Of a stretch of DNA of 64,000 nucleotides, positions 51,502 to 64,000 are shown piece after piece. Positions within the stretch are counted from its first letter, which is position 1; each line of letters begins with the position of its first letter. This DNA comes from Armatimonadota bacterium (GTDB lineage Bacteria > Armatimonadota > Fimbriimonadia > Fimbriimonadales > GBS-DC), in NCBI GenBank assembly GCA_023511915.1, contig JAIMAN010000003.1, positions 1,049 to 65,048 on the forward strand, written 5' to 3'. A program made the position numbers and the translations under genes. Below the pieces are notes generated by a model. That model was not told the DNA's origin. It saw only the letters and a program-made list of their open reading frames with translations, and made no database searches.

Positions 51502-51858
51502 ATGAGGACGCTACGGGTTAGCATCTACGCTCGCGATGAATTCGTGGCAGCATTCATGAGAGAACAGGTGTCCAAGCTTGATGGGGTAAGAATCGTCTCG
51601 GGAAGTAATCACGACTCGCCCCCACCAGACGCCTCTCTTGTTGACACCGACCTACTAACACCTGGAGAGCTAAGAGTTTTATCTGTGTTTATGAAAGTAG
51701 ACTCCGTAAAACAGGCATCTAAGCGGCTCAACTTGTCTCAAAATACTGTCAGAACGCATCTCAGAAATGTCTACATCAAGCTTGGTGTGCATAGCTTGCA
51801 TCGCGCACTGTTGGTTGCACTGCGGCTCGGACTGTTGAAGGATACCACAGATGAGTGA
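51502..51858 (+). CDS. LuxR-family HTH transcriptional regulator
   Basis: LTPGELRVL...LNLSQNTVRTHLRNVYIKLGV; AGGAGG RBS. Confidence 0.88.
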   Translation: MRTLRVSIYARDEFVAAFMREQVSKLDGVRIVSGSNHDSPPPDASLVDTDLLTPGELRVLSVFMKVDSVKQASKRLNLSQNTVRTHLRNVYIKLGVHSLHRALLVALRLGLLKDTTDE

Positions 51859-51883
51859 AAAAAAAAATTCACTTATTTGGGTG

Positions 51884-51913
51884 TTGACTTGTCAGTTCGC
51901 GCTTTGGTAAACT
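51884..51913 (+). promoter_or_regulatory. sigma70-type promoter of the island operon
   Basis: TTGACT-N18-TAAACT with a TG extension. Confidence 0.55.
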
Positions 51914-51922
51914 TGGAGTGCC

Positions 51923-52471
51923 ATGCAAACATCCGCTAACACGCGCATAAGATTGCTGGGTGTGGCAGAAATCTGCTTGTGTGGCTTGCTTCTGTGGGTT
52001 GTAGCGGCAACTCCAGAATCAAGGCGCGTTTTTTCGGACGCCAAGTATCGTGCGCAATTTGTCTTCTCAGACTGGGCACACAGGGTTCGTAGCTACGCTT
52101 ACCAGCGTCGTGAGCTGCCCATAGGCTCGCGTGTGGAGGAGTTTCAGACAAGCGATACTAAGCTGGTTCGCGTCACTGCTCTTGGCATGTGTGGCAAAAG
52201 ATGTATTGATTTTATACGGAACGACACTGGAAGCGAAGCAGTGAAGCGCATCTACTTGGTAATGACCAGTGAAGACGAGGCGAAGCGGATAGAGCGACAA
52301 CTAAGCTTACCTGATGTCTCCGTCTACGCAGATTCAGAAGGTAAACTGCACAAGCGCTTGAACGCTTACTTTGTCCCGCGCTGGTTCCTGTTTGGTCCGA
52401 ATGGCGCGCTGCTGAGCAAGCAGTCTGAAGGCTCCGCGCTTGGCAACTGTGGATGTGGGGGTGTGAGATGA
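51923..52471 (+). CDS. membrane-anchored thioredoxin/redoxin-fold protein
   Basis: TM, LPIGSRV, CGKRC, YADSEGKLHKRLNAYFVPRWFLFGPNG (cis-Pro loop), C-terminal CGC. Confidence 0.6.
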   Translation: MQTSANTRIRLLGVAEICLCGLLLWVVAATPESRRVFSDAKYRAQFVFSDWAHRVRSYAYQRRELPIGSRVEEFQTSDTKLVRVTALGMCGKRCIDFIRNDTGSEAVKRIYLVMTSEDEAKRIERQLSLPDVSVYADSEGKLHKRLNAYFVPRWFLFGPNGALLSKQSEGSALGNCGCGGVR

Positions 52472-53166
52472 GGGCGCAAGGCAGGCGCAACGGCTGGACT
52501 CTTGTTGAAGTGCTGATAGTGATAGCGATCCTTATTACACTGGCGGGGATAGTATACGCTGCCTATCAGCCCATTCGTGAGCGCAGCTTGCGTGCGGTAT
52601 GCGCGTCGCGAATGCGCCAAATCTGGATTCACTTGGAGAACTATCGCCAGGACTACGGGGGAATCGACCCGCCAGCCGTCGATAAGCCCTCTCTAATCGG
52701 GCTTCCCGCTGACTATAATCAGCGACGACTTTTCGAAGCAAGTTATGACCGTATCTTCCCCGATGGCTGGACCTGCCCCACAGGAAGACCCATGCAGCCA
52801 CACACATATACTTCCGAGTTTTGCAACTCACACCCATGTTGGCGAAACGGTGGGGTAGCTCACTGTGTCTACCCGCACTGCGCCTTCTACAGGTTATGGT
52901 ACTTTCACGAGGGATTTTACAGACCAGATGAGCATCCAGGAGTTGTGGCGGCTGTCAATTGTGAGCGGCTACTGTATCGAAGTCTGGGAATGCAGTACCC
53001 AATCATTATGGACACCTGCCATCGCGAAGTTTTGGATGCGTGGTTCAACAATTTCACGATGATGGTGCATCTCGATGGTAGCTTCTCCGCAAGGGTCATT
53101 CCGGACACAGCAGCCTACAGAACCAACTTATGCGAACTCTTTCGCAGTGGAGGTGAACAGCGATGA
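52468..53166 (+). CDS. prepilin-type N-terminal cleavage/methylation domain protein
   Basis: G/WTLVEVLIVIAILITLAGI, CASRMRQI, C-terminal H...LDG; ATGA coupling. Confidence 0.85.
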   Translation: MRAQGRRNGWTLVEVLIVIAILITLAGIVYAAYQPIRERSLRAVCASRMRQIWIHLENYRQDYGGIDPPAVDKPSLIGLPADYNQRRLFEASYDRIFPDGWTCPTGRPMQPHTYTSEFCNSHPCWRNGGVAHCVYPHCAFYRLWYFHEGFYRPDEHPGVVAAVNCERLLYRSLGMQYPIIMDTCHREVLDAWFNNFTMMVHLDGSFSARVIPDTAAYRTNLCELFRSGGEQR

Positions 53167-53578
53167 GAACAACACTGAGGCGTTTGAAGATGCTTATGGC
53201 GATTACGTTTGGACTTTCGGCTGCCTACTTCGTGTTTGCCGAGATAAGCCCTGCTGGAGGTCCCACTTGTGGTCTGTTCTGCAACGGTCAGCGAGCTTGC
53301 AACGCAACCTGTCCGCCGGGGTGCAGTCCAAGGCAGGATGGTGACGCCTTCGATTGCTGCTGCACATTACAGCTTTCTGGCGATCCCATAGATACTGTTG
53401 CAGCGGACAGTGCTGGCGCGCCGAATGTAAGGACGCGCGTGGTAATCTCTGTTCTCGGCCTGTTGAGCGGTTCGTTTGCGGGCAGGGCGCCCTTGTTTCT
53501 AACTACCACAGGTGCGAGAATAATTATTGCGTCGGACCTGCTCCTTGGCCGCCCGAAAACCCAGTTCCTCAGCCATGA
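53163..53578 (+). CDS. secreted cysteine-rich protein, apparently frameshifted near 53385-53390 (138 aa, 16 Cys when repaired)
   Basis: Signal peptide plus 8 Cys in the first frame; 8 more Cys in the -1 frame, which ends in a TGA overlapping the next ATG. Confidence 0.65.
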
Positions 53579-54279
53579 GAATCGCGAAAGATCGTAAAAT
53601 ATTGCTATCACTTGTGATGTTTACCTTAGGGGCGCTGCTCTATTGGTGGTTCACGCGCCCTCCTTCTCCAGAAACGGTAGCGCGCTGGACGATGGAGGCT
53701 ATCGTCCAGCGCGATGCACGCCGCCTATGCCAGCTGATGTGTGATATGGAGCGCCAGTATGTCTCGGAAGAGAACCTCAAGCGCGTGTTAGAACAGATGC
53801 ATAAGGAACTACCTTACCTTACCTCTATAAGCCTGCATGATTACCCATATGATGTAACGAGAGACGATGTGCGCAGGCTAAGGCGAGCAGGATTTAGATT
53901 TACCCCAGCAGTTCACGATGTCCGCTTTTGCTATCGTTTCGTTCACGGTCAGCTGGTACCCATACCTCCGAACGAGCACCCCGCCTTTGCAGAACGGTAT
54001 CTACTCGATTCTTCTACGATAGAGCAGGGGCGTTGTTTCTGCGTACATGTCAACCTCCACAGCGGCTACGAAAAGCGTTGCCCGCTTGTGGTAAAAACTC
54101 TTGTGCGAATAGTCATAGAATCACGCGCTGCCAAGGGCAACATGGAGCAGCTGCTGGAAAGAATTTTTTGGAACAACGGTGTCCGAGTCGCTTTCTATGA
54201 TCCGAACACGGGTCGCATCCAGCGAATTCAACTGATGAAGGCGACCAGTGCAGACGGCAAAGTCAGGTATTACTGGTAG
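53575..54279 (+). CDS. hypothetical membrane-anchored protein
   Basis: N-terminal TM then PSPETVARWTMEAI (NTF2/DUF4878-like start). Confidence 0.65.
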   Translation: MRIAKDRKILLSLVMFTLGALLYWWFTRPPSPETVARWTMEAIVQRDARRLCQLMCDMERQYVSEENLKRVLEQMHKELPYLTSISLHDYPYDVTRDDVRRLRRAGFRFTPAVHDVRFCYRFVHGQLVPIPPNEHPAFAERYLLDSSTIEQGRCFCVHVNLHSGYEKRCPLVVKTLVRIVIESRAAKGNMEQLLERIFWNNGVRVAFYDPNTGRIQRIQLMKATSADGKVRYYW

Positions 54280-54283
54280 TGCC

Positions 54284-56490: not shown

Positions 56491-57717
56491 TCAGGGTTTT
56501 CGCGCCGCGCCGCTGGTGCGGATTGTGCCTGCGGGCGCGACGGGGAGCGTCCATGCCGCCAGCGCGAGCGCAATCACCAGGTCGTCGTGGACGCCCGACG
56601 CGCCCTCCAGTCGCACGCCGCGCGCGGTCGGCGTCGCCTCAAAGTGGTACAACTCGCGCAGCAGGTCATGGTCGGGCAGCAGTTGCAGGCGTTCCTGTTC
56701 CAGCATCAGCGCGAGGTTCTCGATAAGGCTCTGCTTGAGCGTCTGGGTGAAGGCGACGCCTTCGGCATAGGGGAACTCGCGCTGCAGGCTCTCCAGCAGG
56801 GGGTCGCCGACGCCTGTGCGGTCGCAGAGGATTCGCGCGGGGGCGTGCTGGCGCAACTGCGCTGCGACCGCGCTGACCTGCTCCGCCCACGACAGCCCCT
56901 GCCAGCGGCGGACGGCGAGCAGTTTCGCGCCGTCCCGCGCGCCCTGCAGCACTGCCAGCGCCGTGTAGTCGCGATAGCGCGCCCAGTCCACCCCCGCCAC
57001 AACCAGCCCCGCGTCGGGCAGCCGCAACAGCAGCGCGCGATCCACCCACTCTGTGCGGAACACCTGCCCCTCCGCGTCCAGGAACGCCGCGCCGTACTCG
57101 ATCTGATACTGGCGCTGGGTCATCATGCTGGCTTGCATCTGCAGCACGGTGGGCGAGAGCAGCGGGTTGTGCCACGAGGGGCTGCGCAGGCTCCAGACGC
57201 GGATGCCGTCCTCTTGCCCCTGCAGGTAGTAGCGGTAGAAGTAGTTTTTGCCGCGCGGGGTGGAAATCAGCGCGAGTCGTCCGCCCGTGTCGGCGAGCAT
57301 CGGGGTCAGCACTTCGGCGACGACCGCTTCGGGCACATAAGCCGCCTCGTCGACGACAATCAGGTGCGCCTTGCGCCCGCGTAGGAACATCCCGCCCCGC
57401 GCGGCGGCGCGCGCCCACAGCCGCGCGTCGCCCAGCGCGAGCGTCGGCGCAGGCGTGCGCCGTACCGTCGGACGCGCCCCCGCACGGTGCAGAAACTCCA
57501 GCGCACGCTCGAACCCCAGCATCGCCTGCTCCTGCGACGGCGCGACCAGCAGCACTTGGCGCGGCGCGCCCGTAAGCAGCGCGCGGGCAATCTCCGCCGC
57601 GATGACCTCCGTCTTGCCCCACCGCCTGCCGCACGCCAGCACGCGCACAGGCGCACGACTGCTCAAAAACGCCTGCTGCCCCAGATGCGGACGCCACCCA
57701 GAAAACACGGCAATCAC
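56491..57717 (-). CDS. phage terminase large subunit-like protein (orphan)
   Basis: Walker A GRRWGKT, Walker B LIVVDEAAY, coupling motif ISTPRG, RNase H-like GVDWA..D, DRTGVG, HDDLVIALALA. Confidence 0.9.
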   Translation of the reverse strand: MIAVFSGWRPHLGQQAFLSSRAPVRVLACGRRWGKTEVIAAEIARALLTGAPRQVLLVAPSQEQAMLGFERALEFLHRAGARPTVRRTPAPTLALGDARLWARAAARGGMFLRGRKAHLIVVDEAAYVPEAVVAEVLTPMLADTGGRLALISTPRGKNYFYRYYLQGQEDGIRVWSLRSPSWHNPLLSPTVLQMQASMMTQRQYQIEYGAAFLDAEGQVFRTEWVDRALLLRLPDAGLVVAGVDWARYRDYTALAVLQGARDGAKLLAVRRWQGLSWAEQVSAVAAQLRQHAPARILCDRTGVGDPLLESLQREFPYAEGVAFTQTLKQSLIENLALMLEQERLQLLPDHDLLRELYHFEATPTARGVRLEGASGVHDDLVIALALAAWTLPVAPAGTIRTSGAARKP

Positions 57718-57776: not shown

Positions 57777-58364
57777 ATGTGGATTGCGGGCGTGGACGAG
57801 GCGGGACGCGGACCGATTGCGGGACCTGTGGTCGCGGCGTGCGTGGTGCTGCCCCCGCGCCACACGCTGGCGGGCATCGCCGACAGCAAGCAACTGACCC
57901 CTGCGCAGCGTGAGGCGTTGTACGCGGCGATTACCCAGCGCGCGCTCGCGTGGGCGATTGGGCTTGCCAGCCCGCGCGAAATTGAACGCTACAACATCCT
58001 GCAGGCGAGCCTGCAGGCGATGCGCCGCGCTATACTCGCGCTGCCCATACCCCCCCAGCGCGTGCTGGTGGACGGCAAGCACGCGATACCGAACCTACCG
58101 TTGCCCCAGCAGGCGGTGGTGGGCGGCGACGCGCTTGAGGAGAGCATCGCCGCCGCGTCGATTCTGGCGAAGGTCGCCCGCGACCGCATCATGCGCGAGT
58201 TAGACCGCCTGTATCCGCAGTACGGCTTCGCGCAGCACAAGGGCTACCCGACCCCGCTGCACCTGACGCGGCTGCAGATGTACGGGGCGTGCCCTGCGCA
58301 TCGGCGCACCTACGCGCCCGTCGCGCAACTGCGCCTACTCGCAGCCGCTGCCGAAGTTGAATAG
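57777..58364 (+). CDS. rnhB: ribonuclease HII
   Basis: GVDEAGRGPIAGPV, DSK, IAAASILAKV, HKGYPT. Confidence 0.96.
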   Translation: MWIAGVDEAGRGPIAGPVVAACVVLPPRHTLAGIADSKQLTPAQREALYAAITQRALAWAIGLASPREIERYNILQASLQAMRRAILALPIPPQRVLVDGKHAIPNLPLPQQAVVGGDALEESIAAASILAKVARDRIMRELDRLYPQYGFAQHKGYPTPLHLTRLQMYGACPAHRRTYAPVAQLRLLAAAAEVE

Positions 58365-59357
58365 CACAATCAGCAAGTCGGCGTCGTCCACTGCATTATC
58401 GCCGTTCAGGTCTTCGGGCAAGCCCGAACCTGACTGCCCAAAGACGAACAACACACGCAGCAAGTCGGCGTCGTCCACACAGCGGTCGCGGTTCACATCA
58501 CCAGGCTGGATCTCGTAGAGTTCGATGTATTGAAAGTTCCCTGGGCTAAAGATGGTTTGCACCGTGTTGGCGGGGTTGGGCGCGTTCGGGTCGAATACCT
58601 TCACCCCTGCGCCGTCCGTGAACAGAATCAGCCCGTTCTCCAGTTCGTACGCGCCGCGCGGACCCGTGCTGACCGCATAATACGCCACTTGGTTGCCTGC
58701 GGCGTCGAACTCGTAGATGCCTGCAGGGGGGCTAAAGCACGCCACGAGCAGGTTGCCGTTCGAGCGGCGCGTGATTTGCTGCGGGAAGCGGATGGTCGTA
58801 CCGCCCCACTGCCCAAAAAACGCGCCGTTCAGGTCAAACCGCCGTATCAGTCCTGGATTGTTGGAGTTGCTGACGAGCATGTCGTTCTCGCGGAAATAGA
58901 TGGCGAATGGGCTGCTGAGGTTCGCACCGATGAAGGTCTCCTGACCCGTGCCGTCCAGATTGAACCGCTGGATGGTGTTTTGTAAGGAGCCAGAACCGAC
59001 CGTCACATAGAGTTTGCCCGCGCGGATCGCCATTCCGCGGATGTTGTCGATGGCGTTGTTGGTGATGTTCGCGATGGTGCGGATGTAGTTGCCGAAGCCG
59101 TCGAACTCGTGGATGGCGTCAGTTACCTGGTCAGACACGAGGATTGTGCCTGATGGGGTCGGCAGTGCGTGCTTAGGCGATGCGAACAGGGTCGTGTTGG
59201 TCGGGATAAAGTTCGCGTTGATGAGGCTGCCGTCGACGGGGCTGAATGCACACACGCGGTCGTTCGTCCAATCGGGAATCAGCAGGAACGACTGCTGCGC
59301 CTGCCCGAGTACGCCAATCGCCAAACCAAAAGCCAAAAGAGTCGCTAGGCGTATCAT
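58335..59357 (-). CDS. secreted beta-propeller protein with a C-terminal dockerin-like duplicated Ca-binding motif
   Basis: Signal peptide, NHL/SMP30-like repeats, GDVNRDRCVDDADLL...EDLNGDNAVDDADLL. Confidence 0.8.
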   Translation of the reverse strand: MIRLATLLAFGLAIGVLGQAQQSFLLIPDWTNDRVCAFSPVDGSLINANFIPTNTTLFASPKHALPTPSGTILVSDQVTDAIHEFDGFGNYIRTIANITNNAIDNIRGMAIRAGKLYVTVGSGSLQNTIQRFNLDGTGQETFIGANLSSPFAIYFRENDMLVSNSNNPGLIRRFDLNGAFFGQWGGTTIRFPQQITRRSNGNLLVACFSPPAGIYEFDAAGNQVAYYAVSTGPRGAYELENGLILFTDGAGVKVFDPNAPNPANTVQTIFSPGNFQYIELYEIQPGDVNRDRCVDDADLLRVLFVFGQSGSGLPEDLNGDNAVDDADLLIVLFNFGSGCE

Positions 59358-63094: not shown

Positions 63095-64000
63095 CTAACT
63101 CGCCGACGAAGCATCGCGCGGCAGTGCCTCTGCAAACGCCTGCAGGGTCGGGGCATCCAACGCAACATCCACCAGCGACTCCAGCACCTCCAGCGAGTCG
63201 ATAGCATCGATAGCAGGGCGCACCTGCTCCGCCGCCTCGCCGAACCGACGGCGTAGCACACGCATAACAGCGTCGCGCATCGCGGCAACACCCTGCTGGA
63301 TGCCCTGCTGGATGCCCTGCTGGATGCCCTCCATCAACCCCTCGCGGATCGCGCGTTTCTCGAAGCGAGAGACAAAGGTCGTGCCCCGCTCGCGCTTATA
63401 CTCCTCAATCAGCTCGTCAAGCCGCTTCTCCAGAACCTCTGGCAGTATCATCACCCACTCCAGTAGACGCACGATATGCGCCTGATGCTCTGGATTATAC
63501 CTCCTGTCAATCATCAGCCGAATCAACTGCCAGCGCGCCTCAAGGCGGGCGTGCATATCGTTCTCGGTCTCGTGCGCCCGACGAAACGCCAGCAGCATCA
63601 GCGCTGCAGGAGTGCGCTGACGCGCCTCTTGAAGCAACCACTCTTCATCGAGGTCGAGCAGTTTGACAAGGTGGTACTCGAAATCCAACCGTGTGCCTGG
63701 CATCTCCCGCTGGTAGCGATTTGGGGGTCGCCAGTTCGGGTTCTTGTCGCCCAGAATCACGATGCTGACGACATCAAGGCGCGTCTCGATCCAGATGCGG
63801 GCGTTGTAGATGTAGGTGTGTTCGGGCAGGTCGCCACGAGGCTGGTTTTGCGCCTCCAGATGCGTCAGAAACGGCTTCGGCGGACTACCTTTCTCCCACA
63901 CCTTGACCAGTTTATCCGTGTAGAGGCGTCCTGTTTCGCTGCGGGGCGATAGTCGTCGCAACTCGTTATCCAGAAACACAGGGCGTCGCCGCCAGTCGAT
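63095..64000 (-). CDS. Rpn family recombination-promoting nuclease/putative transposase (5'-truncated by the window edge)
   Basis: IDWRRRPVFLDNEL, DKLVKV, HLEAQ, GIQQGIQQGIQQG, RRFG tail. Confidence 0.85.
   Translation of the reverse strand: MDWRRRPVFLDNELRRLSPRSETGRLYTDKLVKVWEKGSPPKPFLTHLEAQNQPRGDLPEHTYIYNARIWIETRLDVVSIVILGDKNPNWRPPNRYQREMPGTRLDFEYHLVKLLDLDEEWLLQEARQRTPAALMLLAFRRAHETENDMHARLEARWQLIRLMIDRRYNPEHQAHIVRLLEWVMILPEVLEKRLDELIEEYKRERGTTFVSRFEKRAIREGLMEGIQQGIQQGIQQGVAAMRDAVMRVLRRRFGEAAEQVRPAIDAIDSLEVLESLVDVALDAPTLQAFAEALPRDASSAS
63291..63330. repeat. 12-bp tandem repeat (about 3.3 copies) encoding GIQQ
   Basis: (CCCTGCTGGATG)x3 + CCCT. Confidence 0.85.

Follow-up and report, generated by a model that had tools for sequence, protein, structure and literature searches.

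In the window, by which we mean the whole analysed stretch of 64,000 nucleotides, we identified a gene that almost certainly encodes a real protein of 138 amino acids with 16 cysteines and that is broken in this assembly. The frameshift by itself is ordinary, whether it reflects a broken allele or a slip of the assembly. The gene belongs to a module with the predicted order thioredoxin-like protein, pilin-like protein, cysteine-rich miniprotein (Cys gene) and membrane-anchored NTF2-like protein, numbered here as genes 1 to 4. This module is uncatalogued and widespread, and is present also elsewhere in the phylum. From its gene context we propose, with roughly even confidence for and against, that it could serve to display a variable disulfide-bonded miniprotein on pili. 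The features are as follows.

51502..51858, + strand: LuxR/GerE-type HTH regulator (Pfam GerE, E=5e-12), a lineage-specific neighbour upstream of the module
51860..54283, no strand: low-GC stretch that includes the module (GC 0.527; genome 0.642)
51884..51913, + strand: match to a sigma70-like consensus before gene 1 (1 found against 2.0 expected in shuffles)
51923..52471, + strand: gene 1, membrane-anchored protein of predicted thioredoxin fold (redoxin-like), 182 aa (alignment A4; Redoxin in relatives)
52468..53166, + strand: gene 2, pilin-like, with the class III signal motif GWTLVE (N_methyl, E=3e-4; GspG/pilin models)
53149..53154, + strand: Shine-Dalgarno-like GGAGGT upstream of the Cys gene
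53163..53389, + strand: gene 3, 5' part, with signal-peptide-like residues 1-26 and 8 cysteines
53389..53390, + strand: break, one base fewer than in relatives
53390..53578, + strand: gene 3, 3' part in the -1 frame, with 8 cysteines, a Pro-rich tail and a TGA overlapping the next ATG
53390..53597, + strand: out-of-frame tail, the product of the broken allele if translated; not the conserved frame
53575..54279, + strand: gene 4, N-terminally membrane-anchored protein of predicted NTF2-like fold, 234 aa (structure model, alignment A7)

The one-base break and the intact relatives

Frame 0 from the ATG at 53163 contains 8 cysteines, the last of them with its codon at 53361, and continues as a cysteine-free tail to the TAA at 53595. 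The -1 frame runs without a stop from 53345 to the TGA at 53576-53578, with its 8 cysteines at 53396-53528. This TGA overlaps the ATG of gene 4 at 53575 (ATGA), and ATGA overlaps are found likewise between genes 1 and 2 (52468/52469) and between genes 2 and 3 (53163/53164). The coordinates thus bear out what the original prediction had read from the letters, namely an annotated frame with 8 cysteines and a cysteine-free tail, and a cysteine-rich -1 frame coupled to the next gene in the manner of the other island genes. In keeping with the signal peptide it had proposed, the basic-hydrophobic-VFA pattern of the N-terminus also looks signal-peptide-like by eye. Stop-free blocks of 62 codons with at least 8 cysteines account for 345 of the 88,050 six-frame blocks of the genome; they are uncommon by chance but this is not proof, so relatives were needed to decide.

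A search with the downstream gene 4 yielded eight metagenome loci (L030-L037). Four of these (L030, L031, L032 and L036) have an uninterrupted ORF of 136-138 aa with 16 cysteines, all 16 of which are invariant among the intact alleles of the metagenome loci, and in L037 the 3' part of the gene is present in the same frame. In L033-L035, which are identical over the cassette, the mature part is gone and only the signal peptide with a few residues remains. The interval 53163-53578 comprises 416 nt in the window and 417 in the intact relatives, and aligning the DNA with L030, the nearest of these, puts the gap of one base between 53389 and 53390. Hence the suspected division of a 138-residue, 16-cysteine protein by a one-base error near 53385-53390 is confirmed: the two halves form one continuous ORF in four of the eight metagenome loci, and in none of the relatives is the un-shifted tail the conserved frame. 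The deletion of the mature domain in L033 left a 36-codon signal-peptide ORF (L033:3894-4004) that still ends in a stop overlapping the gene 4 ATG, implying that translational coupling was kept.

Beyond these loci, both halves were searched singly in 17 genomes of the genus, and apart from the source genome of the window the matches were at noise level (E above 0.008). The blastn comparison of the island with 31 genomes returned little besides the flanking ATPase: G008 and G012 each matched a short part of the pilin gene and G009 matched another short segment. A search of viral contigs produced no relative. We rejected L038 (Erysipelotrichaceae) as a spurious match running across stops, as well as P0010 and P0011 from the representative search, which are unrelated repeat proteins.

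Near-identical strains were followed in 8 of the 20 listed sequencing runs (X1, X4, X5, X6, X7, X9, X10 and X15), which according to their labels originate from hot springs and which were compared as contigs. The contig of X4 bridges the break with one extra base, at depth 3 and with 6 other differences. In X7 the extra base lies in a 10-letter loose end of a contig that is otherwise 99% identical (2 differences in 311 nt). X5, X9 and X15, the latter an RNA run whose contigs possibly contain DNA, have 257 letters across the break against 256 in the window, and X9 has additionally 99 letters where the window has 98. No piece of X10 bridges the break, and X1 carries another lesion (177 letters skipped, with 9 letters between, at depth 31). 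The contig of X6 starts 4 nt before the break and matches the window with one mismatch and no gap, which is below the 31-letter rule for bridging.

Lesions of the Cys gene recur among close strains. In the 24 of 25 Cys-gene members listed from four protein clusters, all 16 cysteines are kept in 19 and the gene is broken in 5. A frameshift near codon 39 is common to P0007 and P0017, and P0008, P0032 and P0033 have in common an internal deletion that is found on three different 5' halves and is also the lesion of run X1. Close strains therefore show four types of lesion: that of the window, the codon-39 frameshift, the internal deletion and the loss of the mature part in L033-L035.

The two causes originally put forward, inactivation and assembly error, were both kept as explanations, and we lean towards the break being biological, that is a fresh null allele. 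It is the sole window-specific frame-shifting indel in coding DNA over about 9 kb compared with six relatives, its context is not a homopolymer (longest run 3), and close strains carry three further kinds of lesion in this gene; the X6 contig without the extra base is a weak hint, too short to count. There is nonetheless a considerable chance that the living cells have an intact gene and that the base is missing through a low-coverage consensus error. Coverage is low (depth 3-5) in the runs nearest to the window, and two of these runs, X4 and X7, carry the extra base, which fits such an error. Furthermore, the allele shows no other decay, with all 16 cysteines kept and no stop in either half, and the 144-aa frameshifted product is absent from a collection of 15 billion proteins. 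An assembly error would leave the functional reading of the module unaffected. By far the least probable cause is a programmed -1 ribosomal frameshift or transcriptional slippage giving two products. The frames do overlap stop-free between 53345 and 53395, but there is no X XXY YYZ slippery heptamer at the break, the longest nearby homopolymer is 3 and the split frame is found in no relative. The continuous ORF in near-identical strains, together with the lack of a slippery site, excludes programmed shifting for practical purposes, in line with the original prediction, and a fresh null allele is the cause that we favour.

Genes and distribution of the module

Gene 1 has a weak likeness to redoxins. 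In comparison with the Pfam models Redoxin and AhpC-TSA, Redoxin was matched by 3 of 13 members (best E=1.2e-5), L043 scored below the cut-off, and the window's own gene 1 protein had no Pfam match. According to a simple pattern search CxxC occurs in 73 of 90 loci, and the window has CxxxC and in addition a C-terminal CxC. As CxxC is absent in 17 of the 90 loci, including the window and the second copy of the module in this genome (one Cys), redox activity of the gene 1 products is not assured.

Gene 2 has its likely start at 52468, with an in-frame ATG upstream at 52453. Its class III signal motif shows Gly at -1, a hydrophobic residue at +1 and Glu at +5, followed by a hydrophobic helix, and the family profile matches solved type IV pilins over the first 60-90 residues with E down to 7e-15. 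DUF1559 (PF07596) was matched by one of three pilins tested, with E=0.019 and 15.5 bits against a cut-off of 23.3, and not by the window's gene. The genome encodes PilB/PilT-type ATPases (8 PF00437 matches over the cut-off), one prepilin peptidase and two secretins. Five loci (L087, L112, L117, L128 and L133) have atypical pilin-like genes without the class III motif, no fourth gene was seen there, and several of them have CxC instead of CxxC in gene 1.

The gene 4 product was modelled with a pLDDT of 76 as a short N-terminus, one helix and an NTF2-like domain. Residues 30-185 aligned over about 100 residues with mainly NTF2/SnoaL/cystatin-like chains (Z 5-6.9, rmsd 3.2-6.1). We consequently assign gene 4 a predicted NTF2-like fold, the match being moderate since Z is under 8. 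The gene 4 profile matched 4r1k with E=0.24.

The LuxR/GerE-type regulator is found at the same place in L031, L032, L033, L035 and L036, and a promoter scan upstream of gene 1 performed no better than chance. Of 151 genomes of the host's order, 14 gave weak homologues in a search with gene 1, and the gene order recurred in their neighbourhoods. The gene 1 profile found 97 places in 64 of 228 genomes of the order, a tally that includes the unpublished G049, and had matches in 60 of 401 genomes of the phylum. We analysed 90 of the 97 places, the exceptions being two in G049, the four weakest and the one in G008, which was read on its own as L054. Among the 84 loci scorable order-wide, meaning those with at least 1.2 kb downstream of gene 1, the pilin gene comes next in 82, is joined by the Cys gene in 69 and by gene 4 as well in 55, a tally in which a few Cys genes were missed. 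At 20 picked places outside the order the pilin gene is adjacent in 19, the Cys gene is present in 16 and gene 4 in 11. These module tallies are partly circular, because the profile HMMs derive from the loci that they score, and related loci are not independent observations.

The Cys gene always adjoins the pilin gene, even with reversed order (L148), and the two are repeated as a pair behind one thioredoxin-like gene in L087 and L153. A Cys ORF follows just two of the 44 pilin-like genes in this genome, and both of these pilin-like genes come after a thioredoxin-like gene. The second copy (G000:C7:26588-28234, + strand) lies in low-GC DNA (0.48-0.52) behind two ORFs identified by eye as rimM and as sigma-factor-like. 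It has a thioredoxin-like gene with a single active-site Cys, an intact secreted ORF with 13 cysteines and no fourth gene. At six loci (L072, L109, L114, L118, L125 and L132) an extra ORF or a gap of about 600 nt separates gene 1 from the pilin gene; the extra ORF of L125 and L132 encodes a membrane protein of 206-224 aa.

Among other species, L063, L065, L105 and L154 have no Cys gene, and that of L073, L089, L097 and L106 is interrupted. The pilin, thioredoxin-like or fourth gene is broken in L070, L086, L092, L054 and L037; decay thus extends beyond the Cys gene and may represent ordinary turnover of a mobile island. Within the same genus, L065 (G007) has no Cys gene and a gene 1 without the second active-site Cys, and L054 (G008) has a split gene 1. 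In L037, gene 4 is interrupted by a MITE-like insertion of about 167 nt (L037:698-864) with 28-nt terminal inverted repeats (82%), and a truncated product matching this insertion, P0045, is found on 7 contigs.

Three other features of the window, all on the - strand, were recorded. A lone large-terminase-like gene (56491-57717) with Terminase_6N and 6C over the cut-off lies between a fasciclin gene and rnhB; it is conserved in L032, L033 and L035, and no phage genes are evident among the neighbouring ORFs. A secreted protein of 340 aa (58335-59357) has a weak beta-propeller-type match (Mala_s_1-like, E=0.002) and ends, as judged by eye, in two Asp-rich dockerin-like repeats. The ORF at 63095-63979 has a QQGI repeat tail and no Pfam match at 1e-5, and presumably resembles Rpn/YhgA-like proteins.

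The miniprotein family and its alleles

The miniproteins are alike in little besides their cysteines. In an alignment of 64 members, seven cysteine columns reach 90% conservation or more, the consensus contains an eighth cysteine, and the spacing CC-x8-C is found in 46 of the 64. For parity and charge, 9 of the 64 were dropped (the broken window copy, uncertain starts and near-duplicates). The mature cysteine count is even in 47 of the remaining 55 members (p=8e-8 against 50:50, an overstated value since kin are not independent), which implies disulfides and lends support to the disulfide pairing originally suggested. Net mature charge is zero or below in 54 of the 55 and in none +4 or above, and it is -1 to -3 in the intact relatives of the window's Cys gene. 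The proposed likeness to toxin and defensin scaffolds is thus not supported, as the mature members are neutral or acidic in all but one case and gave no convincing Pfam, NCBIfam, PDB-sequence or fold match, and the lack of a net positive charge in 54 of 55 speaks against a defensin or other cationic antimicrobial peptide.

Comparison of the 64 members with Pfam gave only single weak matches (AtDEF-like, E=0.011, one member; PSI, E=0.005, one member). There was no NCBIfam match for 6 miniproteins and no match for miniproteins among PDB sequences. AlphaFold on four sequences gave a pLDDT of 52 with a central hairpin. Fold comparison of this low-confidence model had a best Z of 3.1 and Foldseek E above 0.7, and structure atlas look-ups for L030 and L075 returned no usable match. 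The profile comparison of A1 with A10 gave a probability of 98%, which is partly circular because A10 contains L030.

Divergence was estimated by the Nei-Gojobori method on short segments of 42 and about 61 codons, near saturation. Between allele types the mature region has dS of 1.2-2.5 (three pairs saturated) with dN/dS of about 0.1-0.25 on both sides of the break, and for the same pairs dS is 0.1-0.4 in the other three genes of the module and 0.15-0.24 in the neighbouring ATPase. For the window and L031, the Cys frame has dN/dS of 0.21 and 0.14 on either side of the break with dS of 1.3 and 2.0, against dS of 0.21-0.25 in the three flanking genes. The low dN/dS on both sides of the break indicates that the cysteine-rich frame is the constrained one. 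Within a type the alleles are close, and dS between the window and L030 is 0.15 in the 3' half, which points to recombination. On these estimates, the mature region consists of old, deeply diverged alleles persisting among close strains.

In the five loci with a Cys allele, the window included, the Cys type does not predict the variable segment of gene 4: L031 and L032 have the same Cys type and different gene 4 segments, and L030 and L031 have the same gene 4 segment and different Cys types. The last 40 residues of the pilin differ between two Cys allele types, which may be linkage only.

Possible roles of the module

We infer every step of the display model from gene context and sequence statistics. 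The miniprotein would be exported by Sec, and the membrane-anchored thioredoxin-like protein would form or shuffle its disulfides. It could then dock on the head of its cognate pilin-like protein, which the host prepilin peptidase would process and the type IV pilus/T2SS machinery would carry outward; the NTF2-like protein might be an optional periplasmic dock or chaperone. Once exposed, the miniprotein could be subject to phages, predators or neighbours that select for rare alleles and for loss in a frequency-dependent manner, and the window's broken allele could be one such loss. Exposure would explain both the old alleles and the repeated loss. Adjacency of the pilin and Cys genes does not show physical partnership, and complex prediction of the L107 pilin head, gene-4 domain and miniprotein, with the miniprotein as partner, scored 0.75, 0.24 and 0.00 in separate runs against a mark of 0.32. 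A broader version is conceivable though doubtful, namely a phylum-wide display system of Armatimonadota in which each module folds its own hypervariable miniprotein and mounts it on a dedicated pilin, the tag being kept as ancient alleles and repeatedly switched off.

Several features of the module recall bacteriocin clusters. Those of sublancin (sunI-sunA-bdbA/B) and laterosporulin have their own thiol-disulfide oxidoreductase and a membrane-anchored immunity protein, and the module shares with disulfide-bonded bacteriocin clusters a small Cys-rich secreted product, a dedicated thioredoxin-fold gene and a membrane-anchored neighbour. The miniprotein might accordingly be a secreted, bacteriocin-like antibacterial toxin exported with pilin-like help, with gene 4 as its immunity gene and with broken alleles as cheaters that keep immunity. 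A hypervariable secreted gene translationally coupled to a membrane-anchored one would suit this, as would the retention of gene 4 without the Cys gene in L033-L035, L063, L065, L105 and L154 and the presence of the T6SS immunity protein Tai3 among the NTF2-like matches of gene 4 (4hz9_B, Z 5.4, rank 23). We consider a toxin-immunity pair unlikely, however. No gene 4 match was found in 14 of the 69 Cys-gene loci, some for lack of sequence, but several of the loci without gene 4, including the genome's second copy, have ample downstream sequence, and outside the order just the 11 of 20 loci have a match. Moreover, the gene 4 type is not locked to the Cys allele in the five loci compared, and the charge values given above (zero or below in 54 of 55, none at +4 or above) also count against a toxin. 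Unlike the bacteriocin clusters, the module has no ABC exporter or modifying enzyme, its product is acidic with a Sec-type signal, its pilin-like gene is obligatory and its fourth gene is optional and not allele-matched.

A diffusible or contact signal for kin or strain recognition, read by the NTF2-like or pilin-like protein, appears slightly less probable again. Old allele families are maintained side by side, NTF2-like domains often bind ligands, and a regulator lies upstream of both copies in the genome (LuxR-type here, the sigma-factor-like ORF named by eye on C7). Against this, gene 4 begins with a short N-terminus and a single helix, leaving no signalling domain on the cytoplasmic side. 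Whole lineages lack the gene, and its alleles are not matched. We regard as highly improbable a periplasmic metallothionein-like metal binder kept reduced by its thioredoxin-like partner. The high cysteine content and acidic charge, the hot-spring source of the runs and the CxxxC and C-terminal CxC of gene 1 agree with metal binding, but the even cysteine parity and the fixed CC-x8-C fit a disulfide scaffold, and metal binding leaves both the hypervariability and the constant pilin-like coupling unexplained. The methylamine dehydrogenase light chain MauA (PF02975), which is paired with the thioredoxin-like MauD, is likewise a disulfide-rich periplasmic beta protein of about 110-130 aa beside a thioredoxin-like gene, and a MauA-type chain (3c75_M, Z 2.4) was among the fold matches of the miniprotein. 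In contrast to MauA, the module has no large subunit and the miniprotein consensus lacks the conserved tryptophans; this identity was rejected, as the Cys genes had no PF02975 match, nor did the cassette loci of 5 genomes with E up to 5. Display on pili remains the reading to which we give most weight.

For display on pili, the nearest parallel comes from the accessible text of PMC13190605, where myxobacterial minor pilins are paired with cysteine-rich PilY1 partners. As in the PilY1 clusters described there, the module combines a pilin-like gene with a secreted, cysteine-rich, variable partner and occurs as several paralogous loci per genome. In contrast to PilY1, a large beta-propeller, the partner has 90-160 aa, and unlike the PilY1 clusters in that text the module has a single pilin-like gene together with thioredoxin-like and NTF2-like genes. 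In Fimbriimonas ginsengisoli, 79 PulG-like genes were reported and attachment was suggested as their role (accessible part of PMC4072686); the cassette is not mentioned in that part. Gene 2 resembles the PulG/N-methyl paralogues and DUF1559 proteins in its class III signal motif followed by a helix with an NLRQ-type segment, but differs from them as a short subfamily (about 180-240 aa) with fixed partner genes. The accessible text of PMC11071339 contained nothing on the module, and a literature search, largely without subscription papers, found no description of it.

The Cys gene has been missed or mis-framed by annotation. The module offers a testable handle on the unexplained expansion of pilin-like genes in the phylum (44 in this genome), and it supplies a large natural collection of disulfide-rich bacterial miniproteins of no catalogued family, hot-spring members included. 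If the phylum-wide display system were real, the miniprotein would constitute a new scaffold family with an 8-Cys core containing CC-x8-C and extended to 16-17 cysteines, and the ancient alleles and repeated switch-off would be as expected of a phage or predator receptor or of a self/non-self marker. The ancient alleles and repeated loss point to strong ecological selection on a small predicted surface protein.
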